A stretch of DNA of 64,000 nt from an uncultured Actinomycetota bacterium (lineage in GTDB: Bacteria > Actinomycetota > Actinomycetes > JAFAQI01), in contig CAVYQE010000001.1 of assembly GCA_963770565.1 (NCBI GenBank), forward strand, positions 448,001 through 512,000, read 5' to 3'. The notes under the pieces were generated by a model that searched no databases, had not been told where the DNA came from, and saw only the letters and a program-made list of their open reading frames with translations. Below, one piece after another: positions 17,359 to 35,865 of the stretch. The position numbers and the translations under genes were made by a program. Numbering within the stretch: the stretch's first letter is position 1; each line of letters opens with the position of its first letter.

Positions 17359-17391
17359 GTTCATCTAGTGGTCATCCGGCGTTCGGCTTCC
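17359..17391 (+). promoter_or_regulatory. PHO box-like 11-nt direct repeats
   Basis: GTTCATCTAGT/GGTCATCCGGC/GTTCGGCTTCC matches the Streptomyces PhoP G(G/T)TCAYYY unit. Confidence 0.7.
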
Positions 17392-17479
17392 GTGCGTCGG
17401 TTGTCGTCGTCCGTCGGTTGTCGTGGTGTGACGGCAAATGCGTCAATCCGTGAGCGTTGCCACGACGAGGAGGAGTTGC

Positions 17480-17941
17480 GTGAAGTCGCCGCGGTTTCTG
17501 TTCGTCGTGGGCGTCGGTCGCGGCCCGGAGGCGCACCCGGTCTGGCCGGACGTGCACCAGAACTTCGAGGGTGAGGTCGACGCCGACGAGTCGTGGGTCG
17601 CGTGGCGCCTGACCGGCGCCAACCATCGCGAGCTCGGCCGCAGTTCGCGGGTGTTTCCGGACCTGACCACAGCCCGAGAGGACGCGATCGCTCTGCACGA
17701 GCGGATCGACCAGGCCCAGGCGCACATCCTCACCGTGCCGCACACCGGCACCTGGGGGTGGCGGCTGCGGCTCGACGACGTGCCGGTCGCGACTTCGAGC
17801 CGGGGATACGCCCGGCACCGCGAGTGCACCTACAACGTGGCGGCCTTCATGGCCGCCGCTGCCGTGGCGGAGCTCTCCGAAGGAGAGTTTCCGCGGGCCT
17901 GGAAGTTTCACATCGAGCCGATAGTTGGACCCGCGCTATGA
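17480..17941 (+). CDS. YegP/DUF1508-like small protein
   Basis: Two WRL...N.RELGRS / W.WRL...VATSSRGY repeats; SD GAGGAGGAG before GTG 17480. Confidence 0.6.
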
Positions 17942-17958
17942 CGACTGAGGGAGTATCG

Positions 17959-18798
17959 ATGACCACGGTTGCGCCACCGGTAATTGACATCGCGGTGGCC
18001 GAGTTGCCGCAGCGCAATCCCACCGGTGCCCATCTGGACGCGCAGCGTGTTTCGGCGTGGTTCGGCACGAACAAGGTGCTTGAACGGGTTTCGTTGTCAA
18101 TGCCGCCGGGCGTGGTGACGGCGCTCATCGGTCCGTCCGGGTGTGGAAAGTCGACCTTCCTCCGAATCCTCAACCGGATGCACGAGTCGGTGGTGGGCGC
18201 GAAGCTCGCCGGTGAGGTCCTGCTCAACGGTTCGGACATCTACGCTCCAAGCGCTCGGACGACCGAGACCAGGCGGCGGATCGGGATGGTCTTCCAGAAG
18301 CCCAACCCGTTCCCGACCATGTCGATCGCAGAGAACGTCACGGCCGGGCTCAGGCTCACCGGTACCAAGATCGCTAGATCTGATCGAACCGCTCTGGTCG
18401 AGGACTGCCTGCAACGCGGCGGGTTGTGGGGCGAGGTGAAGGACCGGCTCGACTCGCCTGGTGGCGCGTTGTCGGGCGGCCAGCAACAGCGGCTGTGCAT
18501 TGCCCGCTCGCTGGCGGTTAACCCCGACGTGCTCCTGATGGACGAGCCATGCTCGGCGCTCGATCCGACCTCGACCCGACGGATCGAGGAGACCATCGCC
18601 GTCCTGCGCGAGCAGGTCACGATCGTCATCGTCACGCACAACATGCAGCAGGCCGCGCGGGTTTCCCAGCAGTGTGCGTTCTTTCTGGCCGAGCAGGGGA
18701 CCCCGGGCCAGATCGTCGAGGCCGGGTCAACCGAGGACATCTTTGAACGGCCCAAGGACTCGCGCACCGCGGACTACGTCCACGGCCGCTTCGGCTGA
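17959..18798 (+). CDS. pstB: Phosphate ABC transporter ATPase PstB-like
   Basis: [60 protein letters not shown]. Confidence 0.93.
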
Positions 18799-18886
18799 TC
18801 GACATTTCTCACGGCCGGTCCGCCGGCCCGTCCTGCCTGCACGCCTGGCTGGTCGACACGGGCTCGGTGGTTGCTCCCGGACAAGC

Positions 18887-18924
18887 GGTAGGGGCGTCAC
18901 CTCGATCGAGGTGACGCCCCTACC
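18887..18924. terminator. Perfect 38-bp palindrome between convergent genes (probable bidirectional terminator)
   Basis: ggtaggggcgtcacctcga|tcgaggtgacgcccctacc. Confidence 0.7.
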
Positions 18925-18941
18925 AATGGGCGACCGGTGGC

Positions 18942-20072
18942 CTACTTCTTGATCTTCGTCGCAGCGGTTGTCGCAGTTCCGCTGGCATAGCCGGTCTTGT
19001 GCGCAGTCACCTTGCAGGTGAGCTTCTTGCCCTTGTCCGAGCTCGGTACCTTGAGCGAGGACTTGGTCGCATGCTTGATCTTCTTGCCGTTCACGTACCA
19101 CTGGTAGCTGTACGACGAAGCGGCCGGCGACCACTTACCCTTCGAGGCCTTCTCCGTCTTGCCGACCGTGTGCGGTCCGGAGAGCGTGGGCTTCGTCGTG
19201 GCGTGAAGTGCCTTGCCGATCGCGACCTTCTTCGACGTACTGGTGCCCGGCGTCGACCCGCCGCCGTTCGTCCCGGTTGCTCGGCAGGCGAGCGACTTCT
19301 TGTATTGGGATCCCGGAATCGTGTACGTGCTCTTGGTCGCGCCGGAGATCGCCTTCGTACTCGCCAGCCACTGGTAGCTGACCGACGTGGCTCCGGTGAA
19401 GGAAGCGTGGCAGGTCACCTTGTCGCCGACCCGGACGGTGCCGGAGAGCGTGACCTTGCCGTTGAGGGTCGGCGCAGCGCCCGGGTAGACGACCGTCCAG
19501 GTGTTGGCACCGGCGTCCACCGCGATGTCTACGCGGTCGTAGGCGCTGGTGTCAGGTTCCTGGCCCGGCCCCAGGGTGAAGATTCGCATCTCGTAAAGGT
19601 TCTGGTAGCCCGAATCGGTGAGGTTGTTCGGGTACTCACCGATGTAGTCGTCCATCGTCAGGTCTTCGGCCGTTCCAACTACGAACGGGTTGCCGCTGGC
19701 AGTTACTGCGGCTGGTACGCCGCCCGGCGCCGGGTCGTACTGGCCTGCGCTCAGAAGGTCGCCACTCCACGTCTGTGGGTTCGCACCGCCCTCCTGGGGT
19801 GTGTAGGCGTAGAGGTCGGCGTGGTTGTCACCGGAACGGCCCGCGTGACCGGCCACGGCGTACGCGGCAAAGGGCGCGCTGTCCAGTGTGCCGCCCGTGA
19901 TCACGTGTCCGCTGGAGTCGTAGAAGGTGATCGAGCCGATCGCGTTCGGGTCCGGCTCCCAGCCCGGCGTGACCGTAGCGGCTGACGTCCCTCCCATCGT
20001 GGTGAGCAGCGTGCCGACCGAGATCGCGAGTGCGCCGATCCCGGCGACCAGTCGCTGTCGCGTGAGCATCAT
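18942..20072 (-). CDS. Secreted protein: unnamed N-terminal domain + two basic Ig-like repeats
   Basis: SD GGAGG, signal peptide, GWEPDPNAIG domain, two LSG...VG...YQW...I..ATKS...K.L.C repeats. Confidence 0.8.
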   Translation of the reverse strand: MMLTRQRLVAGIGALAISVGTLLTTMGGTSAATVTPGWEPDPNAIGSITFYDSSGHVITGGTLDSAPFAAYAVAGHAGRSGDNHADLYAYTPQEGGANPQTWSGDLLSAGQYDPAPGGVPAAVTASGNPFVVGTAEDLTMDDYIGEYPNNLTDSGYQNLYEMRIFTLGPGQEPDTSAYDRVDIAVDAGANTWTVVYPGAAPTLNGKVTLSGTVRVGDKVTCHASFTGATSVSYQWLASTKAISGATKSTYTIPGSQYKKSLACRATGTNGGGSTPGTSTSKKVAIGKALHATTKPTLSGPHTVGKTEKASKGKWSPAASSYSYQWYVNGKKIKHATKSSLKVPSSDKGKKLTCKVTAHKTGYASGTATTAATKIKK

Positions 20073-20431
20073 CGTTAGCCTCCGTCTCAGTGGCACTGGT
20101 CCCAAGACCCGCCTGACTTTCCCTGTCACCCTAGGTCGCACAAGCCCTTCGGTGATCGGCGCGAAGGACGCGTCGGCGGTTGTTCATTGGTCGGCCGCTG
20201 CTCGTTAACCTGCCAGTCGTTCCGTACCGGAATGGGTGGCACCGCTGAGGGCGCCTGGCGTCTCGGCCGCGCTCGAAACCGGCGGTCAGACGGCGGCCGC
20301 GGAGGACATCTGTTATTCGTCTTTGTGACACCCGGTGTTAGGTTTCAGTCTTCTCCACGGTTGCCAAAGGCCCGCAGTTTGGGCATTGCGCGGCTTGTCG
20401 CGCCCTAGGCACCTGGAGGGGAACTGGTCTG

Positions 20432-21451
20432 ATGACCACTGACACCCTTCGCCTCGCCCCAGGGCCTGAGTCCGAACCTGACGTCCCGCGCGCAATCAGC
20501 GGTGGGCATACGAGGCCGGACCAGGTCTTCAACGGCGTGGCTCGCGCGTTCGGGCTGTTCGTTCTGGTGCTGATGGCGGCGATCGGACTCTTTCTCGGGC
20601 TGCAGATGATCCCGGTGTTGAGGCATTACGGCTTCAACTTCTTCACCCGGGCGCAATGGGACCCGGACTTGAATCAGGTCGGTGTCAAGGCGGCAGTTTG
20701 GGGAACCATCGAGATCGCCTTTATCGCCCTCGTGGTCGGCTTCCCGCTGGCATTGGGCACCGCCCTGTTCATCACAGAGCTTGCTCCCCGGCGGCTCAGA
20801 TCGTTCCTCGTGTCAATGGTCGATCTGATGGCTGCTGTGCCCAGCATCATCTACGGCTTGTGGGGCTTGAACCTGCTCGAACCGCATGTGATTCACCTGT
20901 CCCGGTGGCTAGCGGAGTACTTCGGTTGGTTCCCGCTCTTTCACGTGGACACGGACACCCACGCTGCCGTTTGGCAGACGTCAAAGTTCACCTCGTCCGC
21001 ATTCATTGCAGGGCTCGCGGTCTCCATGATGGTGACACCGCTGACCTGCGCGATCATGCGTGGCGTGTTCGCGCAGGCACCACTCGGTGAGCGCGAGGCG
21101 GCGCTCGCGCTTGGCGCGACCAAATGGGGGGTGATCCGCTCGGTCGTGCTCCCCTTCGGTCGTGGCGGCATGATCGGCGGCACGATGCTCGGGCTCGGGC
21201 GAGCGTTGGGCGAGACAGTTGCGGTCCTTTTGATCATGGCGCAGTCGTTCAAGATCAGCCTGCATGCGCTGCAGAACGGTTACATCTCGATCTCCGCGCT
21301 CATCGCTAACTTCTTCAACTCCGCAACCTCGCTGCAACTGAAGGCATTGCTGGCCGCCGGATTCGTGCTGTTCGTGATGACCCTGATCGTCAACACGATC
21401 GCGGGAATCATCGTGAACCGCAGCCGCAGCGGCGCGGCGACGGAGATCTGA
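20432..21451 (+). CDS. pstC: Phosphate ABC permease PstC-like
   Basis: DLMAAVPSIIYGLWG, EREAALALGATKW, LGLGRALGETVAV; SD GGAGGG. Confidence 0.9.
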   Translation: MTTDTLRLAPGPESEPDVPRAISGGHTRPDQVFNGVARAFGLFVLVLMAAIGLFLGLQMIPVLRHYGFNFFTRAQWDPDLNQVGVKAAVWGTIEIAFIALVVGFPLALGTALFITELAPRRLRSFLVSMVDLMAAVPSIIYGLWGLNLLEPHVIHLSRWLAEYFGWFPLFHVDTDTHAAVWQTSKFTSSAFIAGLAVSMMVTPLTCAIMRGVFAQAPLGEREAALALGATKWGVIRSVVLPFGRGGMIGGTMLGLGRALGETVAVLLIMAQSFKISLHALQNGYISISALIANFFNSATSLQLKALLAAGFVLFVMTLIVNTIAGIIVNRSRSGAATEI

Positions 21452-21452: not shown

Positions 21453-22556
21453 ATGGCCGCGATCACTTCAGCCGTGGAATCCGTCGACGCCAGCGCCGCG
21501 CCGGCTCCGGAGCCCGACCAGCCACGACGACTGGGCACCACCACCGTCGACGATGTGATGTCGCTGCTTGGCTCGATCGTGGGCGCGTTCGGGCTGGTGT
21601 GGATCGTTCTCTACCGCCTGCTCCCGCTGTCCGGAACGCTCGGTTTCGTCGTCTGCTGGTATGTCGTCTTCCTCGCGCTGTACACAGCGGTCACGGCGAT
21701 GTCGCACCCGAAGCCGATCGTCGTCGATCGGCTGGCGCGGAGCTTGATCTGCGGTGTTGCCGGAATCGTCGCCCTGGCGCTGGCGTCGACGATCCTCGAC
21801 ACCTTCCTTCGTGGCCGGCATGCCCTGGTGCACTGGAACTTCTACTCCAAGGACGCCAACGGCGTATCGCCGACGGCACCGTTGAACCAAGGCGGGATCC
21901 TGCACGCGATCGCCGGAACGTTCGTCGAGCTCGGCATCGCGACGGCAATTTCCCTTCCGTTGGGGATCGGCGCCGCGATCTACATGAGTGAGGTAGGCGG
22001 CCGACTGGCTCGCACGGTGCGCACGGTCGTCGAGGCGATGACCGCCCTTCCGGACCTGCTGGCTGGTCTGTTCATCTATACGACCGTGATCGTCGCGCTG
22101 AGATTCGAGAAGAGCGGCCTGACGGCCGCGCTTGCCCTTGCCATCACGATGCTCCCGATCATCGCCCGCTCGGCTGAGCTTCAGCTGCGGGTCGTGCCTG
22201 GCGGGTTGCGGGAGGCCGGGCTTGCCCTCGGCGCGCCGAAATGGCGCATGGTGCTGCGGGTCGTGCTGCCGACCGCGGCCACCGGCCTCGCGACCGCCCT
22301 CATCCTCGCCTTCGCTCGCGCGGTCGGCGAGACCGCTCCCGTGCTGATCGCGTCGGGGGCCACGCCGTTCCTTCGCTTCAATCCGACCGGTGAGCCGATG
22401 ATGTCGCTCCCGCTATACATCTTCACCGAGGTACGAAGCGGCCAGCCATTGGAGATCGAGCGCGCGTACGGAGCCGCCTGCGTGTTGCTGGCAATTGTGC
22501 TCGTGTTGTTCATGGCCCTACGGGTCCTGGCCCGACGGAAAGGCACTGTTCGGTGA
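21453..22556 (+). CDS. pstA: Phosphate ABC permease PstA-like
   Basis: GGILHAIAGT, PLGIGAAIYMSE, LREAGLALGA, ARAVGETAP, SLPLYIF. Confidence 0.9.
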   Translation: MAAITSAVESVDASAAPAPEPDQPRRLGTTTVDDVMSLLGSIVGAFGLVWIVLYRLLPLSGTLGFVVCWYVVFLALYTAVTAMSHPKPIVVDRLARSLICGVAGIVALALASTILDTFLRGRHALVHWNFYSKDANGVSPTAPLNQGGILHAIAGTFVELGIATAISLPLGIGAAIYMSEVGGRLARTVRTVVEAMTALPDLLAGLFIYTTVIVALRFEKSGLTAALALAITMLPIIARSAELQLRVVPGGLREAGLALGAPKWRMVLRVVLPTAATGLATALILAFARAVGETAPVLIASGATPFLRFNPTGEPMMSLPLYIFTEVRSGQPLEIERAYGAACVLLAIVLVLFMALRVLARRKGTVR

Positions 22557-24190
22557 ACGCTCGCCGGCTTCGTCCGACTCGGCTCGCCGTCCTTGCGGCG
22601 GCGATGCTGATGTCGGTCTTCTGGACCATGCCCACGCCCGCGTTCGCCTCGGGCACCACGCAGATCAACGGCTCGGGCTCGACCTGGGCCTACAACGCGG
22701 TCAACGCCTGGATCGGCGAGGTGTCTGCCCAGGGCCTTCGGGTGACGTTCAACCCGAACGGCTCGGCAGCGGGCCGCCAGGATTTCGCGAACCGAGCGGT
22801 CGACTACGCCGTCTCCGACATCGGCTTCCAGGGAAAGGACCCGTTGACCGGCACCAACGACACCTCGAGCGGGCGAGCGTTCGCGTACGTCCCACTGGTG
22901 GCGGGTGGCACGTCGTTTCCGTATCACCTGACGGTTGCGGGACAGCTGGTGCGCAACCTCAGGTTGTCCGGTGCGACCTTGGCAGGAATCTTCACGGGTT
23001 CGATCACCAACTGGGACGCGCCGCAGATCAGCAAAGACAACAACGGGAGGAAGTTCCCCTCGATTCCGATCGTGCCGCTCGTGCACTCGGAGGGCTCTGG
23101 GACGAGCTACCAGTTCTCCGCGTATCTGGCTCAGGATTTCTCCAGCGTCTGGTCCTCCTTCGCGGGCAAGGACAAGCCGACCGAGTATTGGCCGAGCGAC
23201 AAGGCCAACGAGATCGCGCTGAACGGGTCGGACCAGTTGATGAACTACCTCGCATCGCAATCGGGCCAGGGAGCGATCGGCTACGACGAATACTCGTATG
23301 CGATCGCAAAGAACATTCCGGTCGCCAAGATCGAAAACCAGGCGGGCTACTTCACACTCCCCACCCAGTACAACGTCGCGGTGGCGCTCACCCAGGCGAT
23401 CATCAACTACAACCAGAACTCGCCGGACTACCTGCTCGAGAGTCTCAAGGACGTATACGGGTACTCGGATAAGCGCACCTATCCGCTGTCGTCGTACTCG
23501 TACGGCATCATCCCTACGGCGGCGAACGACGGGACGATGAGCACTCCCAAGCGGCAGGCCCTCGCCGACTTCCTCTACACCTCGATCTGTCAAGGTCAAG
23601 GTGCGATCGGCCAGATCGGCTATTCAGCACTTCCGATCAACCTGGTTCAGGCTGCGTTCAAGCAAGTCGGCCTGCTCAAGAAGGTCGACTCGCAAGTCTC
23701 GCTCACCAACCTGAACGTGACGACCTGCGGCAACCCCACGTTCGTGGCCGGGAAGCCCAAGGAAAACCACCTGGCCCAGATCGCGCCCGAGCCGCCGTTG
23801 TGCGACGAGGTCGGGCATGGCCCCTGCACCACCAGCAACGACACCACCGGCCCGACCCCAACGACGGGCGGGAAGAGCTCGTCGCCGACCGGCTCGAAGA
23901 AGGGGAAAGGTGGCCACCACTCGAGCAGCCCGAGTCCCGGGACAAGCCCGAGTCCCGGGACCAGCCCGAGTCCCGGGACGAGTACTGGTGGAGGCATCGA
24001 TCCAGTGACCGGGCTGCGCAGTAGCGACCCGAACGGCACCTCGGGCACAGGGACGGTCGAGACCGAGCCGGTCACGCTCGGCACCGGTGCGTCGTCCGGC
24101 ACCGCGCTTGCGGTGCTTGCCGCTGTGCTCTTCCTCGCGGCGATCGTTGTCCCTCCGACCTTGGCTCGACGCTGGCTCCGCAGGAAGTGA
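22553..24190 (+). CDS. pstS: PstS-like binding protein, non-lipoprotein, with S/P/G/T linker and C-terminal TM anchor
   Basis: GSGSTW, NGSAAG, VSD, HSEGSGTS, GAIGYDEYSYA, YPLSSYSY; AFA signal-peptide end; (SPSPGT)3; TM + RRWLRRK. Confidence 0.85.
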   Translation: MNARRLRPTRLAVLAAAMLMSVFWTMPTPAFASGTTQINGSGSTWAYNAVNAWIGEVSAQGLRVTFNPNGSAAGRQDFANRAVDYAVSDIGFQGKDPLTGTNDTSSGRAFAYVPLVAGGTSFPYHLTVAGQLVRNLRLSGATLAGIFTGSITNWDAPQISKDNNGRKFPSIPIVPLVHSEGSGTSYQFSAYLAQDFSSVWSSFAGKDKPTEYWPSDKANEIALNGSDQLMNYLASQSGQGAIGYDEYSYAIAKNIPVAKIENQAGYFTLPTQYNVAVALTQAIINYNQNSPDYLLESLKDVYGYSDKRTYPLSSYSYGIIPTAANDGTMSTPKRQALADFLYTSICQGQGAIGQIGYSALPINLVQAAFKQVGLLKKVDSQVSLTNLNVTTCGNPTFVAGKPKENHLAQIAPEPPLCDEVGHGPCTTSNDTTGPTPTTGGKSSSPTGSKKGKGGHHSSSPSPGTSPSPGTSPSPGTSTGGGIDPVTGLRSSDPNGTSGTGTVETEPVTLGTGASSGTALAVLAAVLFLAAIVVPPTLARRWLRRK

Positions 24191-27000: not shown

Positions 27001-27929
27001 GCGCTGGTGTCCTCGACGATCGGGCGCAGCCGGATGCGACGTCAGGTGTGACGTCCGGCCGTCGCCGCCCGCGGGCGCCGCAGGCACCCCTGTCCACTCC
27101 GGCAGCGATCTCGGTCGCGGCTGCGGCGATCCTCTTTGCGGTCGCGATCTGGGCCATTCTCTACGCGTTCGTGCTTAGTGGCGTGCAGGAGCACACCGCC
27201 CAACGCGGCCTGTACGCGAAGCTTCGATTGGAACTGGCGAACGAGGTGGCGCCGGTCGGGGGGCAGGTCGCCGACGGCGCCCCGATCGCCCTCATCAACG
27301 TGCCTGCGCTGGACCTGAAGGACAACGTGGTGGTCGAGGGGACCACCACGACGGACCTGCAGAACGGGCCCGGTCACCAGGTCAACACGGTGTTTCCGGG
27401 CCAGGCGGGCGTGTCGGTGATCTACGGCAAGAGCGCCACCTTCGGCGCTCCGTTCCGGAGCGTGTCCCATCTTCGATCCGGCGACAAGGTCATTGCCACC
27501 ACAGGGCAGGGCACCTTCACCTACACGGTCAACGACGTGCGCCGGGCCGGCGATCCACTGCCGCAGCCGCTGGCGGCCGGTCAGGGCCGACTGACCTTAG
27601 TCGCCGCGGTCGGCCACGGTTGGCGCGCTGGTTGGGCGCCTTCGCAGATCGTCTACATCGACGCCACGTTGAACGGCAAAGGCAAGGCCTCGCCGTCGGG
27701 TGGCCCGGCCCTGCAGCCCGCCAGCCAACTTCCCATGTCGCGTGACGACTCGGCGCTGACCCCATTGGTGCTGTGGTTGGAGTTGCTGGTCGTTACTTCT
27801 GTCGCTTTTGTGTGGGCCCGAGGTCGCTGGGGCGGTTGGCAGGTGTGGCTGGTGGGAACTCCTGCACTTCTTGCAGTCGTTTGGGTTGTGACGGAGACGG
27901 CCGCGCGACTATTGCCCAATCTGCTCTGA
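26997..27929 (+). CDS. Sortase-fold protein (class E-like) lacking catalytic His and Cys
   Basis: VVVEGT...LQNGPGH...FPGQAG.SVIYGK.ATFGAPF...LTLVAA; N-terminal TM and two C-terminal TMs. Confidence 0.8.
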   Translation: MSAGVLDDRAQPDATSGVTSGRRRPRAPQAPLSTPAAISVAAAAILFAVAIWAILYAFVLSGVQEHTAQRGLYAKLRLELANEVAPVGGQVADGAPIALINVPALDLKDNVVVEGTTTTDLQNGPGHQVNTVFPGQAGVSVIYGKSATFGAPFRSVSHLRSGDKVIATTGQGTFTYTVNDVRRAGDPLPQPLAAGQGRLTLVAAVGHGWRAGWAPSQIVYIDATLNGKGKASPSGGPALQPASQLPMSRDDSALTPLVLWLELLVVTSVAFVWARGRWGGWQVWLVGTPALLAVVWVVTETAARLLPNLL

Positions 27930-27949
27930 GGCAAACACTGCCGGGCATC

Positions 27950-27971
27950 GTTCGTCTGCTGTTCAGCATCT
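27950..27971 (+). promoter_or_regulatory. PHO box-like repeat pair
   Basis: GTTCGTCTGCT/GTTCAGCATCT at 11-nt spacing, ~80 nt before the 28050 start. Confidence 0.5.
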
Positions 27972-28049: not shown

Positions 28050-29345
28050 ATGTTCAAAAGGGCCAAAACCGCCCTGGCGATCGGCGCCGTGGGATCGACC
28101 GCCGCGCTGCTCGTTACGATGCAGCCGGCGTTCGCTGACCCCCAGGCGCGGCCAGGTGACGCGGTCGTTGTGGGTTCTGACACTGTGCAGAACGCTGCCG
28201 ACTTCCTGTTCAGCGGCGATGTCAGTGGCGACCCGGCATACAACACCGGCAAGACCAACGAGATCTACAACATCACCGCGACCGGCGACAACAACGGCCG
28301 AGCTCTCTATGACCCCAATGGCAACCTGCTGTACGGCGTCGGCACCACCTCAGTCGTGATGCGGGCCGGCACCAAGCCGGTCGAGCGGGTCGATGGCTCA
28401 GGGGCTGGCATCACCGCCTTGACCGCCGACTCCCTTGGCGGCGCGGGCTACAACGGGCTGGTTAACGGATCGTTCACCTTCTCGCGCTCCTCGCGGCTGC
28501 CAAAGGCTGCGGAGCAGTCGGCGTGTGCAGCAATCGCGGGCTGCGGCGGGCTGCACGTCTTCCAGCTCGCCACGGACAACCTCGAAATGGCGGTCAGCAG
28601 CGTCTCCACGAACGCGTTCCCGATGTCGACCACGCAGCTGGCGTATGTCTACAGCCACTGTGACGGCTCTCAGGGCGTCGAGTTTTCCGAGGTCCCCAAT
28701 GCTCCTGGTGGGGCTTCGAACAACCACATCATCCCAACAATCCCGCAGGCCGGCTCGGGCACGCGCGGCTCGTTCGAGTCCGACATCGGGGTTTCGGACG
28801 CCACGATCACGTCAACCCCCTGCCTTCGGATCAGCGAAGAGCACGACCCGACCGGCGTTACCCTCGCGACGCAACCGGGATCTAGCACGCTCGACCCGGC
28901 GGACGCGATCGAGCCGTTCTCAGTGGGCAAGATCAAGCTCATCCAGAGCGGGTACTACGGCAACAGCGGTCAGCCGGCGTCGAACTTCCAGATCACGCTG
29001 ATGACGGGTTGCACAACCGGCGACCAGACACCGAACTGCCCGACGGCCCACCAGATCCTGGCCAGCGACGGCAATCCGGTGTACGACAACACCCGAGGCA
29101 TGTACCTGCTGGCGCGTGACTTCGACCTCAACCTGACGCCTGGTGTGGGCGTATGCGCCTCAGGTGGAGCCGATGCAAGCTACGGCCAGTGCAAGCCGTC
29201 GCAGCCCGGTGGCACCAAGAACTGGGTGAACGATGTGTTGAAGGGCGCGACGTCCTGGATTGCTCGGGCGGCAAACGCCCCGGACATTGCAGCGGCCGGC
29301 TTCACCGCGAACTACGCGGACCTCGGCGACGCCTCGTCCGGCTGA
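28050..29345 (+). CDS. Secreted PstS/PBP2-fold protein with no obvious anchor
   Basis: SD GGAGGAGG; signal peptide ...PAFA; VGSDT, DGSGAG, FSRSSR, PQAGSGTR; 8 Cys. Confidence 0.78.
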   Translation: MFKRAKTALAIGAVGSTAALLVTMQPAFADPQARPGDAVVVGSDTVQNAADFLFSGDVSGDPAYNTGKTNEIYNITATGDNNGRALYDPNGNLLYGVGTTSVVMRAGTKPVERVDGSGAGITALTADSLGGAGYNGLVNGSFTFSRSSRLPKAAEQSACAAIAGCGGLHVFQLATDNLEMAVSSVSTNAFPMSTTQLAYVYSHCDGSQGVEFSEVPNAPGGASNNHIIPTIPQAGSGTRGSFESDIGVSDATITSTPCLRISEEHDPTGVTLATQPGSSTLDPADAIEPFSVGKIKLIQSGYYGNSGQPASNFQITLMTGCTTGDQTPNCPTAHQILASDGNPVYDNTRGMYLLARDFDLNLTPGVGVCASGGADASYGQCKPSQPGGTKNWVNDVLKGATSWIARAANAPDIAAAGFTANYADLGDASSG

Positions 29346-29375: not shown

Positions 29376-29419
29376 CCTCTCCCCGGTGCCACGGCTTGGC
29401 AGCGGGCACCGGGGAGAGG
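29376..29419 (+). other. Intergenic 15-bp stem-loop (mRNA stabiliser or partial terminator)
   Basis: cctctccccggtgcc ... ggcaccggggagagg. Confidence 0.6.
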
Positions 29420-29518: not shown

Positions 29519-31378
29519 GTGAGAATCAGTCTTAAGCGTGCGTCCACCGGGGTGGGAGCCCTGGCGCTCGCGGCCGGCCTTGTGCTTGCCTCGAGCGGGG
29601 TGGCGTCCGCATCCACCAACGTCGGGTGGGAGCCCGACCCGAACGCGATCGGCACGATCACGCTGCTCGACTCGAACGGCGTGCCGATCACGGGCGGCAG
29701 TCTCGACTCGCACCCGTTTGCGGCGTACGCAGTCGCCTCGCACCAGGGACGTAGCGGGATCGACAGCAAGGGCCAACTCTACGCATACACCCCACAGGTC
29801 GGCACCAACCCGCAGACCTGGAGCGGCGACCTGCTCAGCGCCGGCACCTATAGCCCCGCGCCCGCAGGGACCCCGGCGGACGTGTCGAGTACGGGTCTTC
29901 CATTCGTCACCGGTGGATCCGCCGACTTCTCCTTCAACGACTACATCAGTGAGTACCCGAACACGCTGTCGACGACCGGCTACGTGAACCTCTACCAGTT
30001 GAGGTTCTACACCGCCGGCTCGCAGGCGCCGGACACCACCGCGTACGACGTCGTGGACATCCAGGTCAACACCTCTGCGGACACCTGGCAGGTCGTCTAC
30101 CCGGGTGCGGCGAACGGCAACTACCCGGACGCCACGGATGCCACCACGACGACGCTTACCACTACGCCGAGCAGCCCGGACACGTCCAGCAACAACCCGG
30201 AGACGGTAACCCTGCACGCGTCCGTCAGTGCCGCCACGGCGGTTCCGTCCGGCTACACCGGCGGGATCGGCACGGTGTCGTTCTTCGACGGGACCACGCC
30301 GGTCGGCTCACCGCAACTGGTCAGCGGAACTGGCCCTTACACGGCCAGCGTCACCGACTCAGTGCCCAACCCGTCGTCGCACACGTTCACGGCGAAGTTC
30401 GCTCCGTATGTCGGCACCGGCCTGGCCGCCTCACAAGGGTCAGCACCGTTCCAGGTCGGCGCTCCGGTTCCTGGCACCACCACGGCTCTCTCGGTGACCC
30501 CGGGTCAGTTTGCGGGTGACCAGAACAGCTACACCGCCACGGTTACGTACCCGGCGGGGACGAACTGCACCGGTACCGTCAACTTCTTCGACGGCACGAC
30601 ACTTGTTGCAGGGCCGATCAGCCCGAAGCCGGGTACTCCGAACGAGTTCGACGCGACGAACACCTTCAACGCGCCGGACTCGCACTCAATTACTGCGGCG
30701 TTCACCCCGGCCGACCCGTCCGTTTGCGGTGGGTCGACCTCGTCGCCGTCGACGTTCTCGCAGGGCGCAAACCCGAACGGTCCTTGTGCGACGTCGAACG
30801 GCGGTCAGTGCACCGATGTCCAGACGATCACGACCACGGTGCCCCAGGGCATCTTGGTCATCTCCACGCCCTACACGGCCAGCAACCCGCTGAACCTGGG
30901 GACGATGTCACTGGACAGCACCGGCACGATGTTCACTGCGCACGCTACGTTCGGCGCGAGCTCGACGGACGCGACGCAGGACATCTACGTCACCGACACC
31001 CGTTCGGGTGACCTCCCGTGGACGGCTCAGGCGCAGGCCTCGAACCTGTCCGACGGTGGGTCGAACGTCAGCTCGCAGATCAGCGGCGAGAACGTCGGGC
31101 TGTCCGGTCTCACGGAGGTTCCGGTCACGGGTAACGGGTTCGACGGTACGGCGACGAACTTCACCACCTACAACAACTTCGCCGCCAGCCCGGCCGTTGC
31201 TCCGACCGACACAGGTACCGCCGGTCTCGGGAACGCTGCGCATGACATCGCTCAGGCGCAGCACGGTACTGGTTCGATCGGTCTCACCGGGACGCTCACT
31301 GTGAACGCCCCGAGCTCCACCGAGCCCGGTACGTTCACCGGCACGGTTACCTTCACGCTGGTCGGCAGCCTGGTTTAG
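29519..31378 (+). CDS. Secreted protein: unnamed domain + two Ig-like (Big_3-like) repeats + C-terminal WxL-like domain
   Basis: SD CAGGGAGA/GTG; GWEPDPNAIG domain; GTVSFFDGTT and GTVNFFDGTT repeats; VTDTRSG..PWTA...GTFTGTVTFTL. Confidence 0.8.
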   Translation: MRISLKRASTGVGALALAAGLVLASSGVASASTNVGWEPDPNAIGTITLLDSNGVPITGGSLDSHPFAAYAVASHQGRSGIDSKGQLYAYTPQVGTNPQTWSGDLLSAGTYSPAPAGTPADVSSTGLPFVTGGSADFSFNDYISEYPNTLSTTGYVNLYQLRFYTAGSQAPDTTAYDVVDIQVNTSADTWQVVYPGAANGNYPDATDATTTTLTTTPSSPDTSSNNPETVTLHASVSAATAVPSGYTGGIGTVSFFDGTTPVGSPQLVSGTGPYTASVTDSVPNPSSHTFTAKFAPYVGTGLAASQGSAPFQVGAPVPGTTTALSVTPGQFAGDQNSYTATVTYPAGTNCTGTVNFFDGTTLVAGPISPKPGTPNEFDATNTFNAPDSHSITAAFTPADPSVCGGSTSSPSTFSQGANPNGPCATSNGGQCTDVQTITTTVPQGILVISTPYTASNPLNLGTMSLDSTGTMFTAHATFGASSTDATQDIYVTDTRSGDLPWTAQAQASNLSDGGSNVSSQISGENVGLSGLTEVPVTGNGFDGTATNFTTYNNFAASPAVAPTDTGTAGLGNAAHDIAQAQHGTGSIGLTGTLTVNAPSSTEPGTFTGTVTFTLVGSLV

Positions 31379-31412
31379 GCCAGCGCGCTGACAAGCGTCG
31401 GCACAGCAGAAG

Positions 31413-31450
31413 GGTCGGGGCGGGCCGAAGCGGCCCGCCCCGACCTCTTT
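31413..31450 (+). terminator. Rho-independent terminator
   Basis: ggtcggggcgggccg-aag-cggcccgccccgacc followed by tcttt. Confidence 0.8.
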
Positions 31451-31507
31451 ACTCTCTGTTCATCCCTGGATCGATGGGCGTTCATGCATTCACGGTTACC
31501 TCTTGAT

Positions 31508-32656
31508 GTGACTCGCACGGCCGGTCGTCTGCGCGCCGCGCTGCGGGCGGCAGTCTTCGGGCTTGCTGTCGCAGTCGCGACCCTCGTGGTCAACGCCGGC
31601 GGTTCGTCGGCAAGAGCGAAGCCGACGAGCGTCGCCTTTCGCCTGGTCGAGAAGAGCGGTAGCGGGTCATCCCAGAAGGCGGCAGCGAAGAACAAGGCAA
31701 CCTGGGGGATCGGTCCTGCGTCGCGCAAGAAGATCGACGGTCGGCCGGACTACAAATGGTTCGTCTCACCCGGCGCAGTCCTGCACGACCATGTCGCGAT
31801 CGAAAATCTCAGCAAGCGCTCACTCAAGTTGTTCGTGTATGCGCGGGACGCCACCAATGCTCCCAACGGCCAGCTCGCCCTCCAGCCCAGGCAGGCTGCG
31901 CCGCAGGGAATTGGCGCCTGGGTGACGATCGACCTTCCGCAGCACCGAGATTGGGTGATCGTCGGAGCCCGGTCGACGCTGATTCTGCCCTTTACTCTGC
32001 AGGTTCCCACCAATGCTGACCCTGGTGACTACACCGGTGGGGTCATCTCCGCGCTGAACGCGCAGGTGACGACCAGCGGCGGCCAAGCGATCTCTCCTAC
32101 GCTCCAGCAGCGGGTTGCGGTACCGATGATCGCTCGGGTATCCGGACCACTCCATCCGGGCCTCTCGATCACGAATCTGCACACCTCCTACAAGGGGACG
32201 TTCAACCCGATCGGCGATGGACAAGCGACCGTCACTTACCGCGTCGTCAACACGGGTAACGTCAACCTCGGGGCCCAACAGCAGGTCACGCTCCGCGGCT
32301 TGTTCGGCACCACAACGCGGATCGGCGCGGCGAACGTTCCAGCACTCCTGCCCGGCAGCTCCGAGACGATCACGGTGCCGGTGGCCGGCGTCTTTCCGGA
32401 GTTCCTCGAGACCGCGAAGGTGATCCTCCAGCCGTTGATTCCCGCCGGCGATGTCGATGGGCCGGTGCCCCAGCCGCACGCAAGTTCTCGATTACTCGCC
32501 ATACCGTGGATGCTTATTCTCTTGGTCGCACTTCTTGTGGCGCTCGTCGTTCTCGAGGTGCGTCGCCGTCGTACCTCCGCTCGAAACCGGCGGGCTGCAG
32601 CGTCTGGCCGCGCCGGCCGACTCGATACCGCCCCGAACGCGCCGGAAACAACATGA
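31508..32656 (+). CDS. WxL-interacting protein-like (DUF916-type) with C-terminal TM
   Basis: PGAVLHDHVAIENLS...L.VYARDA, F.LQVPTNADPGDYTGG, RV...RVSG.L.P.L, Y.VVNTGNVNL, LLPG, IPW+TM+RRRR; start 31484 or 31508. Confidence 0.78.
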   Translation: MTRTAGRLRAALRAAVFGLAVAVATLVVNAGGSSARAKPTSVAFRLVEKSGSGSSQKAAAKNKATWGIGPASRKKIDGRPDYKWFVSPGAVLHDHVAIENLSKRSLKLFVYARDATNAPNGQLALQPRQAAPQGIGAWVTIDLPQHRDWVIVGARSTLILPFTLQVPTNADPGDYTGGVISALNAQVTTSGGQAISPTLQQRVAVPMIARVSGPLHPGLSITNLHTSYKGTFNPIGDGQATVTYRVVNTGNVNLGAQQQVTLRGLFGTTTRIGAANVPALLPGSSETITVPVAGVFPEFLETAKVILQPLIPAGDVDGPVPQPHASSRLLAIPWMLILLVALLVALVVLEVRRRRTSARNRRAAASGRAGRLDTAPNAPETT

Positions 32657-32669: not shown

Positions 32670-33605
32670 ATGAGTCGATTGCGCCGCGTGGCCAGCGTTG
32701 GCCTCCCCCTCTTGATCGCAGTCGGCCCCATGGTCGGGCCGGCGGTTGTTGCGGCTCGTGCCGTCACAGCACCCGCCGACAACTACGCGCAGGGCTACGT
32801 CGGGCTGTGCGACAAACAGGGCCAGAATGTCACCAGCGGAAGCGTGTACGACAAGCCGTTCATCTGGCGCGCGGTCGGCTCGGTGGCGGCGCCGGTGCCG
32901 TTCAACGCCTCGAGCCGCAAGGCCACTCTGTATGCCTTCCAACCCCGTCCAGGGGTCGACGCGAGCGAATGGAGCGGTACCACCATGACCGCCGCCTCGC
33001 CCTACTCGAACCCGTCGGTCCCCATGGCGCAGGCGAACCATCGCGACCTGGGGCTATCGGACTACCTCAACGACTATCCGGCCGAGGTGAACGGAATCGT
33101 GGAGCTTCGGCTTCTCTACAGCTCCGCGGATACCGGCTTCTCCACGAGCTACGCCGCGTCGTTTATCCAGGTTCACGGCACGACTTGGACCCTGATCAAG
33201 GGGGGCAAGGTCAACTGCACGGCGGGCAGGGCGACTTCCCCGGAAGCGAAGCTGCCCAAGTACGACAAGGCGGGAAAGCAGCCTCCCCAGTTGTTGTCGG
33301 TCGTGGCGGCCAAGTCGGTCGGCGCTCCGACCAGCCGGGCTGCGAACCTTGCCGCTCGGAACGCGGCGCTTCACGGTCCCGGCACGGAGACGTCACCGTC
33401 TGCGACTTCTTCGACAGGGTCGACCCCTCCCTCCGGCTCGCCGATCGGCGCTTCTACTAGCCCCGCGACGTCCGGTGGTGAGGCTGCGGCTGGCGGCTCA
33501 AGCGGATCATCCGCTGGGCTGATTGCTCTCGCGATCGCGATCGCGGTCGTCATCGCGGGCGGCGGATTGTTCTGGTGGAAGCGCGGAACGGGCGCGACCG
33601 GGTAG
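32670..33605 (+). CDS. Secreted protein with divergent copy of the unnamed domain and C-terminal TM anchor
   Basis: Signal peptide; G.V.L.D..G..VTSGS...PF...AV, LYAFQP....WSG, DYLNDYP; S/T/G linker; TM + WWKR. Confidence 0.75.
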   Translation: MSRLRRVASVGLPLLIAVGPMVGPAVVAARAVTAPADNYAQGYVGLCDKQGQNVTSGSVYDKPFIWRAVGSVAAPVPFNASSRKATLYAFQPRPGVDASEWSGTTMTAASPYSNPSVPMAQANHRDLGLSDYLNDYPAEVNGIVELRLLYSSADTGFSTSYAASFIQVHGTTWTLIKGGKVNCTAGRATSPEAKLPKYDKAGKQPPQLLSVVAAKSVGAPTSRAANLAARNAALHGPGTETSPSATSSTGSTPPSGSPIGASTSPATSGGEAAAGGSSGSSAGLIALAIAIAVVIAGGGLFWWKRGTGATG

Positions 33606-33640
33606 CGGTAGCGGACCTGACGGATTGAGCCCAGCCAGAC

Positions 33641-34666
33641 TTACGGCTGGTCCGACGATCCCCCGCCGTCCGGTGGGCCCTGAACGGCGGCCGCGTGCTT
33701 GGCCCTGATTCGCCGCTTACGTCGTCCCATTGCCCACCAGAAGCCCGTGCCCGCCAGAAACGTCAGGGCTGCTGCGCCGGCCAGTGCGGGAAGCCGGGTG
33801 GAGGTGTGCCGCGGGGCGGAGGGCGTGCTCGTCGAGGGTGGTTGGCCGCCGCCCACCACCGCGGTCGTGATGGGCGCGGGACTCGGGCTCGCAGTCGTAC
33901 TCGGGCTCGGGCTCGCACTCGGGCTCGGGCTCGGGCTCGGCCTGGCACTTGGGCCGGCCCCTGGACTCCGGTGGTGCTTGTGGTGGTGCTTGTGGTGGTG
34001 CTCGTGGTGGTGCCGCTTCGGTGGCTTCACCGGAACGACGGCTCTGCTGCAGCCGACGGTGAACGTCAGCGTGCCGCGGTAGCTGCCAGGCGGTGTGGAC
34101 GTGGGTGCCACCACCCGAAGATCGCCCGACAGCGTCACGACTCCGCGACCGCGTCGGGCCGATGCGATGACGTGCGGTCGGCCGCCCAACCCATCCGTGC
34201 CCTCGGCATCCTCAGCGACGGCGGGGTCCGCGGGAGGGTTGTTGTGCAAACGGAGGTTTCGCGCTGATGGGTCGAAAGTTGAGCCCTTGGATGCGATGAC
34301 GTGCACATGGACCAGCCCGACGTCTTGGTCGTCGATGGCGTTGATCGTATGGTGGATCGAAACCTTGGCCCGCAGCCTTGAGGCCTCGCCTCGCAAGGTC
34401 CAAGGGCGCTCCCTGTGGCGCGAGTCGTGGACGGTAATCCCGCTAAACGCGACGGTGGCGACGTACTGGTCCGCGCGTGCGTTCAAGACCAAGAGGAGCG
34501 TGAACCGGAGCGGATGGCGGCTCGTGTAGGGCGATGACACTCGAAGCTGGCAGTGCGGATGGCGAACGGGTGGGGCGGCGGCGGCCGGGACGGTCATCCA
34601 GGCGGAGCCAAGCGTGAGGATCGCCGCCAATGCCGATCGGAACCCGACCTCCGACCGACCGCCCAC
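33641..34666 (-). CDS. Membrane-anchored WxL-like protein
   Basis: Collinear with the C domain of the 29519 ORF (SPYT..PL, V.DSR....PWTL, DVGL, PAVA....GLG, APTST.PGSY.GTLTFTV); His-rich and PS linker; TM + RRKRR. Confidence 0.72.
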   Translation of the reverse strand: MGGRSEVGFRSALAAILTLGSAWMTVPAAAAPPVRHPHCQLRVSSPYTSRHPLRFTLLLVLNARADQYVATVAFSGITVHDSRHRERPWTLRGEASRLRAKVSIHHTINAIDDQDVGLVHVHVIASKGSTFDPSARNLRLHNNPPADPAVAEDAEGTDGLGGRPHVIASARRGRGVVTLSGDLRVVAPTSTPPGSYRGTLTFTVGCSRAVVPVKPPKRHHHEHHHKHHHKHHRSPGAGPSARPSPSPSPSASPSPSTTASPSPAPITTAVVGGGQPPSTSTPSAPRHTSTRLPALAGAAALTFLAGTGFWWAMGRRKRRIRAKHAAAVQGPPDGGGSSDQP

Positions 34667-34788
34667 CTCTGAGTCAACTCCCGCGATGGCTCGGTGTCGT
34701 GAATTGGCTTGAGAGTACGACGTCGGCCGACTCCGGGATGGGCGTTTTGGATCATTTCACCCACTCGGGTAGTAGTCGCAATCGAGCG

Positions 34789-35865
34789 TCAGTGATGATG
34801 CGGGAGCTTCGTCGGCAGCGAGGGAGACGGGGTAGGGGTTGGGCGGGCTGACAAGGTCGGGCTCGGAATCGGCTGGGGCGGCGCCGGCGAGGCCGGAGGG
34901 GTCGGGTTGGTTGGTGGAATCCCGGTCGGCTGACTCGGCGGAACGATCTGCATGGGGATTAGTCGTCGGCGACGCTTGGGCAGGCCGTTGATCCCTAGCT
35001 TGGCCGGGTTGATGTGGCGATAGGCCGCAATGGCGGTGAGTACCGAGCGCACGTATATATGGGAGTGGTTGTAGGTGTAGACCGCCCGGATCAGGTTGGG
35101 CGGGCGATTAAGGCTGCTGGCCGCCGCACAGAGGTAATGTGCCGCCGCGAGAGTGGCATCGTCGATGTCCTGCGGGTTTCGCATTCCGTCGTGGTTGCCG
35201 TCGGCCCCGTAGTAGGCCCACGTCGACGGCAGGATCTGCATCGGGCCGACGGCGCGGTCCCACCGACGGTCGCCGTCGTAGGTACCGCGGTCGGTGTCCG
35301 GCACGCGCGCGACCCCGCCATTCCCGTCGAGAACGGGACCGTAGATCGGAGGATTCGCAACGCCATCCCAATGGGGGCTAGCCGACCCTCCGGACACTGC
35401 ATTGTCCGACTCCACAAGACCGATGCCGGCGAGTACCTGCCACGCCAACCTGCATTCACGATCGGACGTGGCGGTGAGGCGTGCTGCGTTCACATAGGCG
35501 GCGAGCACCGGGCGCGGGATGGCGGCCGCTGGCACCGGTACGACCCTGTTCTGCGGCAATGGCACGAGCGCGGCGACGGGCGTAGCCAGAGCTTGCGCGC
35601 TCGCCAGTCGCTGGATGACCCGGGCGGTGAGTGGGGTCGTTGGAGGGATCGCGTCGAAGGGCATGGTGGTGCTTGGTGCGCTCGACGCTTGGTCGGCGAC
35701 GCTGCCACGGGCGCTGCCCCCCGCGGGTTGAGTCGGTCCGACGGATAACCCGACCGCGAGCAGTACCGTCGCCGCGGCCAGCCTGCCTAGGCTGAATCGA
35801 GCGCGGGTCAACTCGGCCACCCTCTTACACCTCCGGGCGCCGTAGCGGGCATCGGACACACTCAC
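34789..35865 (-). CDS. Lytic transglycosylase (SLT_2/MltB-like)
   Basis: LAGIGLVES, DRAVGPMQILPSTW, DGNHDG..NPQDIDDA..AAAHYL, YNHS. Confidence 0.85.
   Translation of the reverse strand: MSVSDARYGARRCKRVAELTRARFSLGRLAAATVLLAVGLSVGPTQPAGGSARGSVADQASSAPSTTMPFDAIPPTTPLTARVIQRLASAQALATPVAALVPLPQNRVVPVPAAAIPRPVLAAYVNAARLTATSDRECRLAWQVLAGIGLVESDNAVSGGSASPHWDGVANPPIYGPVLDGNGGVARVPDTDRGTYDGDRRWDRAVGPMQILPSTWAYYGADGNHDGMRNPQDIDDATLAAAHYLCAAASSLNRPPNLIRAVYTYNHSHIYVRSVLTAIAAYRHINPAKLGINGLPKRRRRLIPMQIVPPSQPTGIPPTNPTPPASPAPPQPIPSPTLSARPTPTPSPSLPTKLPHHH

Follow-up and report, generated by a model that had tools for sequence, protein, structure and literature searches.

A Pst-linked cell-surface gene cluster with a non-catalytic sortase, PstS-fold proteins and WxL-type proteins in Actinomycetota

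In the Isd and Hta/Hmu haem relays, a single type of ligand-handling domain recurs on proteins of the wall, the membrane and more distal sites; these relays stand beside an ABC importer, have a sortase of their own and are controlled by nutrient starvation. In the structure of the Escherichia coli phosphate importer PstSCAB, the arginines PstA R220 and PstC R237 bind inorganic phosphate, according to the available portion of PMC12976172. The Elr WxL proteins of Enterococcus are described in the available portion of a preprint (10.64898/2026.10.17.759780) as pilins joined by donor-strand exchange, with a DUF916 protein as the chaperone; the chaperone strand is reversed and leaves the last pocket free, the Elr tip adhesins have no donor strand, and large proteins with a C-terminal WxL domain act as tip adhesins in Bacillota. 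That portion of the preprint reports complete operons only in Bacillota, together with a small satellite of Actinomycetota chaperones; PstS and phosphate do not figure in it. Here, we describe a block of 14 genes in which a Pst-type transporter, a sortase-fold protein and WxL/DUF916-type proteins are encoded together, located in a 64,000-nt stretch (the "window") of contig CAVYQE010000001.1, positions 448,001 to 512,000, from an uncultured Actinomycetota bacterium (GCA_963770565.1). An initial annotation, made from the sequence alone, had proposed that the block encodes a single phosphate-starvation-induced surface apparatus. The cluster is a real, conserved and undescribed system that is assembled from known parts; no description of it was found in the open literature, subscription journals being mostly outside the search.

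The loci were selected by similarity to a 937-residue protein of PstS fold, denoted Big. A total of 595 homologues of Big were recognized among 7999 scored candidates, 497 relatives were confirmed in GTDB contigs, and the best 79 loci were analysed. They belong to Frankiaceae, Acidothermaceae, Jatrophihabitans, Dactylosporangium, Marmoricola, Aeromicrobium, Streptosporangiaceae and Acidimicrobiia. A sortase-fold gene follows Big directly on its 3' side at all 70 loci with flanking sequence, and this arrangement is therefore not due to chance. By a distance rule, PstS1 lies upstream of Big at 62 of 69 loci. Each of the 36 loci of at least 22 kb has the full set of pstC, pstA, PstS1, Big, sortase and pstB. 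Big was present in 15 of 41 related genomes and in 11 of 24 within the family, both of which are floor values. In an even sample of 300 Actinomycetota genomes, used to estimate prevalence, five had a match to Big with a single query and eight had a match to PstS3, the third PstS-fold protein of the cluster, at E < 1e-24. All eight of the latter have Pst genes, a Big-like gene and a dead sortase; PstS3 sits on another contig in G233, and pstB of G314 either is located past the end of the contig or went unseen. The conserved synteny that the initial annotation had called for is thus found in other genomes, distant ones included.

A second module, in the order PstS3, X-Ig-Ig-WxL, WxLIP (the DUF916-type protein), X-TM and X-Ig(n), where X is a recurring secreted domain and TM a transmembrane helix, stands before, after or inverted to the first module. 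WxL and WxLIP are both absent at 9 of the 38 loci that extend at least 6 kb beyond PstS3, and WxL/WxLIP pairs occur without Pst genes in four of seven distant genomes inspected. Because the WxL/DUF916/X part can be lost and also occurs without Pst genes, the fixed unit is a core of seven genes encoding PstB, PstC, PstA, PstS1, Big, the dead sortase and PstS3, with WxL, WxLIP and X as accessories. The proposal of the initial annotation is partly supported. The core genes in the window are the following:

17938–18798, + strand: PstB-like ABC ATPase with all motifs intact (TIGR00972, 5e-100).
20432–21451, + strand: PstC-like permease, with the phosphate-site Arg/Glu kept at 21197–21214 (TIGR02138 above cut-off; alignment to E. 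coli PstC, 9k3s).
21453–22556, + strand: PstA-like permease, with the R220 equivalent kept and Asp as the S133 equivalent (NCBIfam match, residue counts).
22553–24190, + strand: PstS1, a PstS domain with a Ser/Thr/Pro stalk and a C-terminal membrane helix, without a lipobox; the R135 equivalent is His (profile match, residue counts).
24187–27000, + strand: Big, 937 aa, with a Cys-rich N-terminal β domain (probably neocarzinostatin-like), a PstS fold with acidic cleft motifs, a stalk with a conserved G-x-T and a membrane helix (AF2 model, PstS-fold match).
26997–27929, + strand: class-E-like sortase fold without catalytic His, Cys and Arg, flanked by three membrane helices (one N-terminal, two C-terminal) and ending in a conserved LLPN (alignment to SrtE, 5go5).
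28050–29345, + strand: PstS3, a secreted, unanchored PstS-fold protein with a remodelled cleft (GSDT; the R135 equivalent is Pro), a core gene whose product is probably abundant (profile, residues).

An open reading frame (ORF) check of the window recovered all 14 ORFs in the order and orientation first described. The genes from pstC to the sortase abut or overlap, as had been claimed: pstC ends at 21451 and pstA starts at 21453, while pstA/PstS1, PstS1/Big and Big/sortase each overlap by 4 nt. The 14-gene block is thus real and conserved, although its WxL-TM and lytic transglycosylase-like (SLT) genes, like the entire WxL/WxLIP/X module, are accessory rather than core. In the reading that we favor, the block encodes an accessory apparatus, under PhoP/RegX3-type regulation, that would gather phosphorus at and beyond the wall, with a full relay feeding the importer; we give this reading slightly less than an even chance.

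PstC and PstA scored above their NCBIfam cut-offs, in agreement with the first labels, and PstB (333.8 vs. a cut-off of 343.2 for TIGR00972) and PstS1 (165.5 vs. 205) fell just below. The Walker A/B, LSGGQ and H-loop motifs of PstB were invariant in 60 of 60 cluster copies. The phosphate-site arginines of the membrane part are under constraint, with the PstA R220 equivalent kept in 66 of 66 copies and the PstC R237/E241 equivalents in 60 of 61. We infer that PstB, PstC and PstA form an active importer. The position of PstA S133 is occupied by Asp in 35, Glu in 15 and Ser in 16 of 66 cluster copies, vs. Ser in all 28 housekeeping copies, and that of PstS1 R135 by His in 44, Gln in 15, Arg in 5, Asp in 2 and Pro in 1 of 67, vs. 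Arg in all 24 housekeeping proteins. The ligand residues of PstS1 differ by clade, and distant members of the cluster keep the canonical PstS Arg (10 of 10 parsed). Since Arg is changed to His or Gln in PstS1 and Ser to Asp or Glu in PstA in this clade, the importer may transport another phosphate species or another state of protonation. PstS1 has a C-terminal membrane tail in 65 of 69 copies and a lipobox pattern in only one of 69, compared to 23 of 25 housekeeping PstS proteins, and neither Tat nor lipoprotein signals were found in the cluster proteins.

In a FastTree tree of PstS1 rooted on housekeeping PstS as the outgroup (one row was dropped for gaps, and one mis-labelled row was ungrouped), the loss of the Arg maps to the base of a 63-row clade with a support of 100 and one reversal; this clade is also the one that bears X. 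A quick PstC tree, made without an outgroup and including one housekeeping row from the unpublished genome G032, separated 62 cluster rows from 30 housekeeping rows by a branch with an SH-aLRT of 100, showing that the cluster PstC is distinct from the housekeeping PstC. In both trees, copies from Acidimicrobiia and Actinomycetes are intermixed, which suggests that the cluster has spread by lateral transfer.

The source genome has a separate, canonical pst locus on contig C2 (432694–439542), comprising a regX3-senX3-like pair, phoU and a lipoprotein-type pstSCAB, with a pit-type transporter and strong PHO boxes nearby; its PstB is 58% identical to that of the cluster. The possibility that the block is the only pst locus of the genome is thereby ruled out. 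A housekeeping-type pstC is found outside the cluster in 13 of 15 genomes bearing Big; of the other two genomes, one has part of a second copy and the other, which is 80% complete, has none. In some genomes, a canonical pst operon with a PHO box lies directly beside the cluster (L133:11597-15732; L078:15795-19982). None of the genomic patterns that the initial annotation had named as speaking against the system was encountered.

Big had no match to a Pfam family. Its AF2 model (pLDDT 84) matches PstS over residues 358–810 with a Foldseek E of 2e-9, and comparison with a PstS structure gave a Z score of 31.6 and an rmsd of 2.8 Å over 318 aligned residues. The C-terminal membrane helix is present in 74 of 76 copies, Big has no lipobox, and a G-x-T motif precedes the helix by about 10 residues (G in 62 and T in 73 of 83). 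The cleft motifs are acidic. The Cys-rich N-terminal β domain is probably neocarzinostatin-like, and the N-terminus had no match in the ESM Atlas. A Big-like protein at L161:11183-13024, consisting of an enediyne-chromoprotein (neocarzinostatin-like) domain, a recognizable PstS domain and a membrane helix, is encoded beside a dead sortase and looks like an early form of Big.

The protein encoded next to Big matches the sortase family PF04203 at 4e-14 and the sortase structure 5go5 at 1e-12; its best NCBIfam match, NF033747, at 6e-19, is below the cut-off. Alignment of 71 sequences and comparison with SrtE bear out the suggestion that the enzyme is dead: the catalytic His column contains Arg in 52, Lys in 14 (including the window) and His in 5 of 71, the Cys column has no Cys in 71, and Arg is found in at most 11 of 71 at candidate columns. 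An active sortase was rejected on these counts, with His in only 5 of 71, no Cys in any of the 71 and no conserved Arg. The two C-terminal helices end in LLPN, with P in 69 of 69 and N in 68 of 69. An LPxTG-like motif before the membrane helix was seen in no tail of Big or WxLIP, in two tails of PstS1 and in five of X-TM, and LPxTG anchoring of PstS1 or Big was rejected from these counts. Together with the G-x-T motif of Big, the conserved LLPN end suggests a putative non-catalytic adaptor that would bind Big.

The PstS3 profile matches PstS-type structures, with 1twy the best at 4.5e-16. No membrane tail was found in any of 51 copies, and the cleft has a GSDT motif and a Pro at the position of R135. 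Besides its occurrence in the WxL protein (below), the X domain is found in two other proteins of the window:

18942–20072, − strand: secreted X domain with two lysine-rich Ig domains, a probable non-covalent wall binder (ORF open to 20141; X 63% identical to that of the WxL protein; Ig_2 match).
32670–33605, + strand: X domain with a stalk and a membrane helix, i.e., a membrane-anchored X (X identity; membrane tail).

The three copies of X in the window are 63% and 24–26% identical, and the domain is modeled as a β-sandwich with a pLDDT of 93.5. Foldseek gave no match at E ≤ 0.001, and a VIA comparison gave a best Z score of 5.8, to ASF1/Fn3-type sandwiches; Pfam matches were scattered and weak, and the ESM Atlas yielded only unnamed clusters below 0.9. 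The family comprises 1182 clusters at 50% identity, and in the best 150 of these X nearly always follows directly after the signal peptide. X occurs in three settings, on the predicted pilin, on a membrane anchor (a membrane tail was found in 38 of 46 X-TM proteins) and on a wall-binding protein; a basic Ig C-terminus was present in 21 of 39 X-Ig proteins, the others having LAxTG-like or repeat ends. Distant loci have the same three settings, with a Cys-pair or neocarzinostatin (NCS)-like domain in place of X. Profile–profile comparison of X with the Cys-pair domain gave a weak match, with a probability of 27% and an E of 7e-4, and did not confirm a relationship of either X or the Big N-terminus to the NCS-like payload. 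X was found in 10 of 14 relatives bearing Big, in 0 of 26 others and in none of the 300-genome sample.

In 42 of 42 loci, an unfused PstS3 is accompanied by X. When PstS3 is instead fused to a basic Ig tail, which would bind the wall by itself, the locus has no X (3 of 3), and none was found in a search of three genomes of this kind. This pattern supports a link between the two, and a relay from X-held PstS3 is a tentative proposal that we consider a little less probable than the apparatus as a whole.

The same proteins can be read in another way, in which the Pst-derived ABC transporter no longer imports much, but senses phosphate or powers the assembly of an adhesive coat or fiber made of PstS3 and X/WxL, with Big as a homologous base or nucleator and the sortase as a chaperone; a cell starved of phosphate would benefit by adhering to minerals, roots or biofilm. 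PstS3 is a core protein that is never anchored (0 of 51 membrane tails), looks abundant and has lost the phosphate Arg even in distant members, the cleft of Big is acidic, the passengers of X are structural repeats, and the ligand residues of PstS1 vary from clade to clade, all of which would fit such a coat. PstS-rich appendages have also been described for Pseudomonas aeruginosa under phosphate limitation in the available portion of PMC2242829. However, the arginines of the phosphate site in the membrane do not vary, the canonical PstS1 site is kept in distant members, and no polymerization motif was identified in PstS3, and we regard this reading as unlikely.

A less probable reading still is that two independent phosphate-starvation operons lie side by side and are inherited together without contact between their products, one a second Pst importer whose binding proteins are tethered to the membrane (perhaps for acid soils, with His/Asp favoring H2PO4-), and the other an adhesin or pilus operon. 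The two modules do swap order and orientation and have separate promoters, and both the Pst-free WxL/WxLIP pairs and the core loci without WxL/WxLIP are as expected from this reading. On the other hand, PstS3 heads the surface operon and yet tracks the Pst core in all eight sampled genomes, X is confined to genomes bearing Big, the change from Arg to His in PstS1 occurred as one event at the base of the X-bearing clade, and neither a dead sortase nor Big is needed in ordinary Pst systems.

The WxL protein and its neighbor are encoded downstream of PstS3:

29519–31378, + strand: X-Ig-Ig-WxL protein with a donor strand at 30821–30841 preceding the WxL domain, a predicted pilin whose payload precedes the donor strand (Big_3_5 match, WxL family, donor-strand profile, X model; ORF open from 29396).
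31484–32656, + strand: WxLIP/DUF916-type membrane-anchored chaperone, with a predicted donor hairpin at 32096–32116 and a second domain that is not DUF3324 (family profile).

The WxL label holds at the level of the family: of 48 aligned members, 27 match PF13731 at E ≤ 0.1, the best at 3e-7, but the window protein by itself does not, and the WxL profile gave no real match in the PDB. DUF916/WxLIP_PGBD (PF06030) was matched in 27 of 42 chaperones, and DUF3324 (PF11797) in 0 of 42 at E ≤ 0.01, with DUF7507/NEW3/CARDB-type Ig matches instead. The chaperone profile matches the E. faecium WxLIP1 structures 9i25 and 9i1y at 5e-10, including the hairpin, and a membrane helix was found in 29 of 36 chaperones (strict window setting). 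Two residues before the first strand of the WxL domain lies a putative donor strand, Q-x-[IVL]-x-[VAT]-x-[IV]-P-x-G (Q in 32 of 38, [IVL] in 94% and [IV] in 97%), with 10 further rows lacking the anchor motif. The hairpin of the chaperone carries the motif V-x-[LVFI]-x-Q (V in 78%, [LVFI] in 100%, Q in 22 of 33; 9 of 42 unmatched) with a polar residue in the fourth position, so that the chaperone strand reads as the reverse of the donor strand, its fourth pocket polar.

Because the WxL protein and the chaperone carry mirror-image donor strands, a fiber, which the initial annotation had offered as one of its possibilities, is plausible; we consider it probable that the WxL proteins form one. 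The mirror fit leads to the prediction that the chemistry is the same as in Elr, with the payload placed N-terminal to the donor strand. A complex prediction with two WxL domains scored 0.00, with controls that did not fold, and was used neither way. Alternatively, the WxL protein might be a single displayed adhesin held 1:1 by WxLIP, the strand before the WxL domain completing its own fold, without any fiber. Most loci have one large WxL gene and no small WxL pilin, and large C-terminal-WxL proteins are the tip adhesins of Bacillota in the portion of the preprint cited above. Since the Elr tip adhesins in that source have no donor strand, while the cluster protein keeps one that mirrors the chaperone strand immediately before the WxL domain, and since hairpin and codon signals (below) point to a large excess over the chaperone, we consider the single adhesin very unlikely.

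WxLIP matches were found in 55 of the 300 sampled genomes at E ≤ 1e-10. Since two unpublished genomes and Ig proteins that are probably unrelated contribute to this tally, we relied on the 11 matches at E < 1e-50, of which all seven inspected have an adjacent WxL gene. Stand-alone actinobacterial pairs of a payload-WxL protein and WxLIP, each with a donor-like strand before the WxL domain, were seen at L145:8583-11267, L146:7798-10976, L147:7426-10661 and L149:7608-10115; two of the payloads concern nutrients, namely HtaA, whose neighbor is a binding protein of iron/haem type, and a purple acid phosphatase, and the others are a TIM-barrel and one unnamed domain. The nutrient payloads speak for the reading that we favor, and these pairs suggest a general actinobacterial WxL display platform.

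Several signals in the DNA bear on the control and the relative amounts of these proteins:

17358–17391, + strand: PHO-box-like array, with three direct repeats of 11 nt ahead of the DUF1508-like gene and pstB (score of 17.4 bits against the matrix from housekeeping pstS promoters; rank 19 in the genome list).
18889–18922, no strand assigned: perfect inverted repeat between the convergent pstB and X-Ig genes, a probable terminator (sequence).
27949–27970, + strand: PHO-box-like repeat before PstS3, weak in the window and conserved in relatives (13.5 bits).
29377–29418, + strand: strong hairpin after PstS3, an mRNA stabilizer or terminator (sequence).
31412–31446, + strand: intrinsic terminator-like hairpin after the WxL gene (16-pair stem with a T tail).

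The start of the block as first reported (17359) coincides with the first of these repeats. The PHO-box matrix, for which 22 different direct repeats ahead of housekeeping pstS genes were used, agrees with the Streptomyces PHO box, which consists of 11-nt units with GTTCACC in the available portion of PMC6988585. Sites of at least 14 bits precede PstS3 in 25 of 48 loci, compared to 0.1 expected from shuffles. They were also found before pstC (8 of 62), WxLIP (8 of 40), X-Ig (5 of 42) and pstB (3 of 61), and none was found before pstA (0/62), PstS1 (0/69), Big (0/73), the sortase (0/70) or X-WxL. These repeats support, as a motif-based result, the phosphate-starvation control proposed earlier, and the block very probably forms one co-regulated phosphate unit. 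No sigma-70-type promoter was found. Identical top-scoring PHO-box 22-mers occur at C4:27188 and C2:370129, with a second identical pair 600 bp away, which suggests a duplicated or redundantly assembled stretch.

Strong 3' hairpins (z < -2.5; first 30 loci per gene, six shuffles each) follow PstS3 in 19 of 30, X-WxL in 23 of 28 and X-Ig in 13 of 25 cases, and other genes in at most 5 of 23–30. The use of C-ending codons is highest in PstS3 and X-WxL, while the chaperone, sortase and X-TM are no different from Big; the ABC genes are also above Big. Because hairpins and codon bias mark PstS3 and X-WxL but not the chaperone, the pattern resembles the ratio of subunits to assembly factors and indirectly suggests that PstS3 and X-WxL are made in large excess over the latter.

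In the mechanism that we propose for the accessory apparatus, phosphate starvation would turn on two sub-operons through the PHO boxes. The cluster PstB-PstC-PstA would then import, fed by a PstS1 that is held by its C-terminal helix rather than by a lipid. The DUF916 chaperone would prime the WxL protein, and the internal donor strand would, by analogy with Elr, connect one subunit to the next in a thin pilus from which each subunit extends an X-Ig-Ig arm. In the fourth and weakest step, abundant secreted PstS3 would act as capture protein and carrier, kept by X on pilus, wall and membrane, and would hand over its ligand to Big and PstS1, while the dead sortase would serve as a membrane adaptor that holds the degenerate sorting motif of Big beside the transporter. 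Gene context is what suggests that X holds PstS3, that Big receives it and that the dead sortase positions Big. In its most elaborate form, the proposal is a "bottle-brush" WxL pilus in which each subunit has a docking arm for a secreted PstS-fold carrier, and a non-standard phosphorus ligand (mineral-bound or organic phosphate) reaches a dedicated importer of Pst origin through a giant receptor of PstS fold and the dead sortase as adaptor. This would be a new class of monoderm nutrient-capture machine, but we hold that full picture to be doubtful, if somewhat less so than the adhesive coat.

A number of observations weigh against the gathering and relay of phosphorus by this apparatus. Of 67 near loci, 62 have lost the phosphate Arg of PstS1, and it is absent from all PstS3 and Big proteins. 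No solved fold is close to that of X, and nothing therefore connects the domain with binding of PstS3. The passengers of X, in 72 of the best 150 clusters scanned, are Ig, Fn3, TIG or RTX repeats or WxLIP and never enzymes, which were rejected as passengers; this would also fit a plain adhesin. The three loci with fused PstS3 represent a single Aeromicrobium-like clade, and the distant loci G116 and G072 have an unfused PstS3 and no match to X. There was neither a small WxL pilin nor a donor-only terminator. In the window, no PHO box was found before pstC (best 4.6 bits), the box before PstS3 is weak at 13.5 bits when 101 genomic sites exceed 12, and among the distant loci only G072 has a clear box before PstS3. 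Codon use of the block in the source genome is unlike that of ribosomal genes, with PstS3 at the 47th and X-WxL at the 62nd percentile. Finally, the loci were picked by similarity to Big and are mutually related.

The remaining genes of the block are accessory:

17480–17941, + strand: DUF1508-like small cytoplasmic protein, a possible regulator (ORF open from 17438; likely start at 17480 after a strong RBS; PF07411, E 0.05).
33641–34666, − strand: WxL domain without a donor strand, with a stalk and a membrane helix, acceptor-only and rare (35% identity to the WxL domain of the pilin).
34789–35865, − strand: lytic transglycosylase-like protein that could open the wall (SLT_2, 1e-5).

The DUF1508-like gene overlaps the first possible pstB start by 4 nt and is present at 23 of 79 loci; its label, like that of WxL, is weak in the window and holds in the family, with PF07411 matched at 4e-4 in a relative. 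The WxL-TM gene was found in the window and at locus L011 only, and lytic transglycosylase-like homologues at 12 of 79 loci. A polyphosphate kinase 2 gene (16398–17330) ends just upstream of the first PHO box. Downstream of the block are a c-di-AMP riboswitch (RF00379, 60 bits) at 36120–36262, before an NlpC/P60 wall hydrolase (36279–37409), and, as a phosphorus-related neighbor like the kinase gene, at 38943–41843, a 966-aa phosphoesterase-family protein with a membrane helix and an extra C-terminal domain. The GC3 of the block is 0.74–0.87, vs. about 0.9 in its flanks. Contigs from four soil DNA runs (two studies) cover the block in short pieces, none of which spans it.

Phosphorus acquisition by soil actinobacteria in poor soils is poorly known, and the cluster provides a defined and widespread seven-gene candidate, with culturable hosts available in Dactylosporangium, Aeromicrobium and Marmoricola. 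It leads to the prediction that chaperone-guided WxL pili extend to Actinomycetota, against what the available portion of the October 2026 preprint reports, and that they carry a payload on each pilin. Two further subjects for study are a sortase that is naturally non-catalytic and conserved as such, and X, a new family of secreted domains.

Compared to PstSCAB (E. coli 9k3s/9k3x; PMC12976172), the cluster shares the PstB motifs, PstA R220, PstC R237/E241, the PstS fold and, probably, PHO-box-type control. It differs in forming its own branch beside a housekeeping operon and in having three PstS-fold proteins, none of them a lipoprotein; PstS1 R135 and PstA S133 are changed in this clade, there is no phoU in the block, and a dead sortase and surface proteins are linked to it. 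With the Elr/WxL pilus, it has in common the WxL domain, an adjacent membrane-anchored DUF916 protein, an alternating donor strand and a reversed chaperone strand whose last pocket stays free. However, it is found in Actinomycetota and linked to a Pst cluster, and its donor strand is internal, following X-Ig-Ig, with a Q-I-V-I pocket code, whereas that of Elr is N-terminal, [S/T]-x-[G/A]-x-[V/I]-x-F, with the code S/T-G/A-V/I-F; there is no match to DUF3324, no small pilin and no LPxTG terminator, and the cluster sortase is inactive. The sortase shares the fold and the N-terminal anchor with class E sortases (SrtE 5go5, SrtE1 5cuw), but lacks His, Cys and Arg, has two extra C-terminal helices and an LLPN end, and its neighbors are without LPxTG. 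Like the PstS/DING appendages of P. aeruginosa, as the available portion of PMC2242829 describes them, the cluster would place a secreted PstS-fold protein on phosphate-starvation-induced surface structures; that host, however, is a diderm using Hxc type II secretion and a canonical PstS, with no WxL, sortase or Big. The cluster thus resembles both a Pst importer and an Elr pilus, but misses features of membership in either, namely the PstS Arg and lipid anchor of the former, and the DUF3324, N-terminal donor strand and active sortase of the latter. Its layout is like that of the Isd/Hta haem relays, although it probably belongs to the phosphate regulon, uses PstS-fold and X domains in place of NEAT/CR domains and has an inactive sortase, and by analogy with them it may act as a relay.

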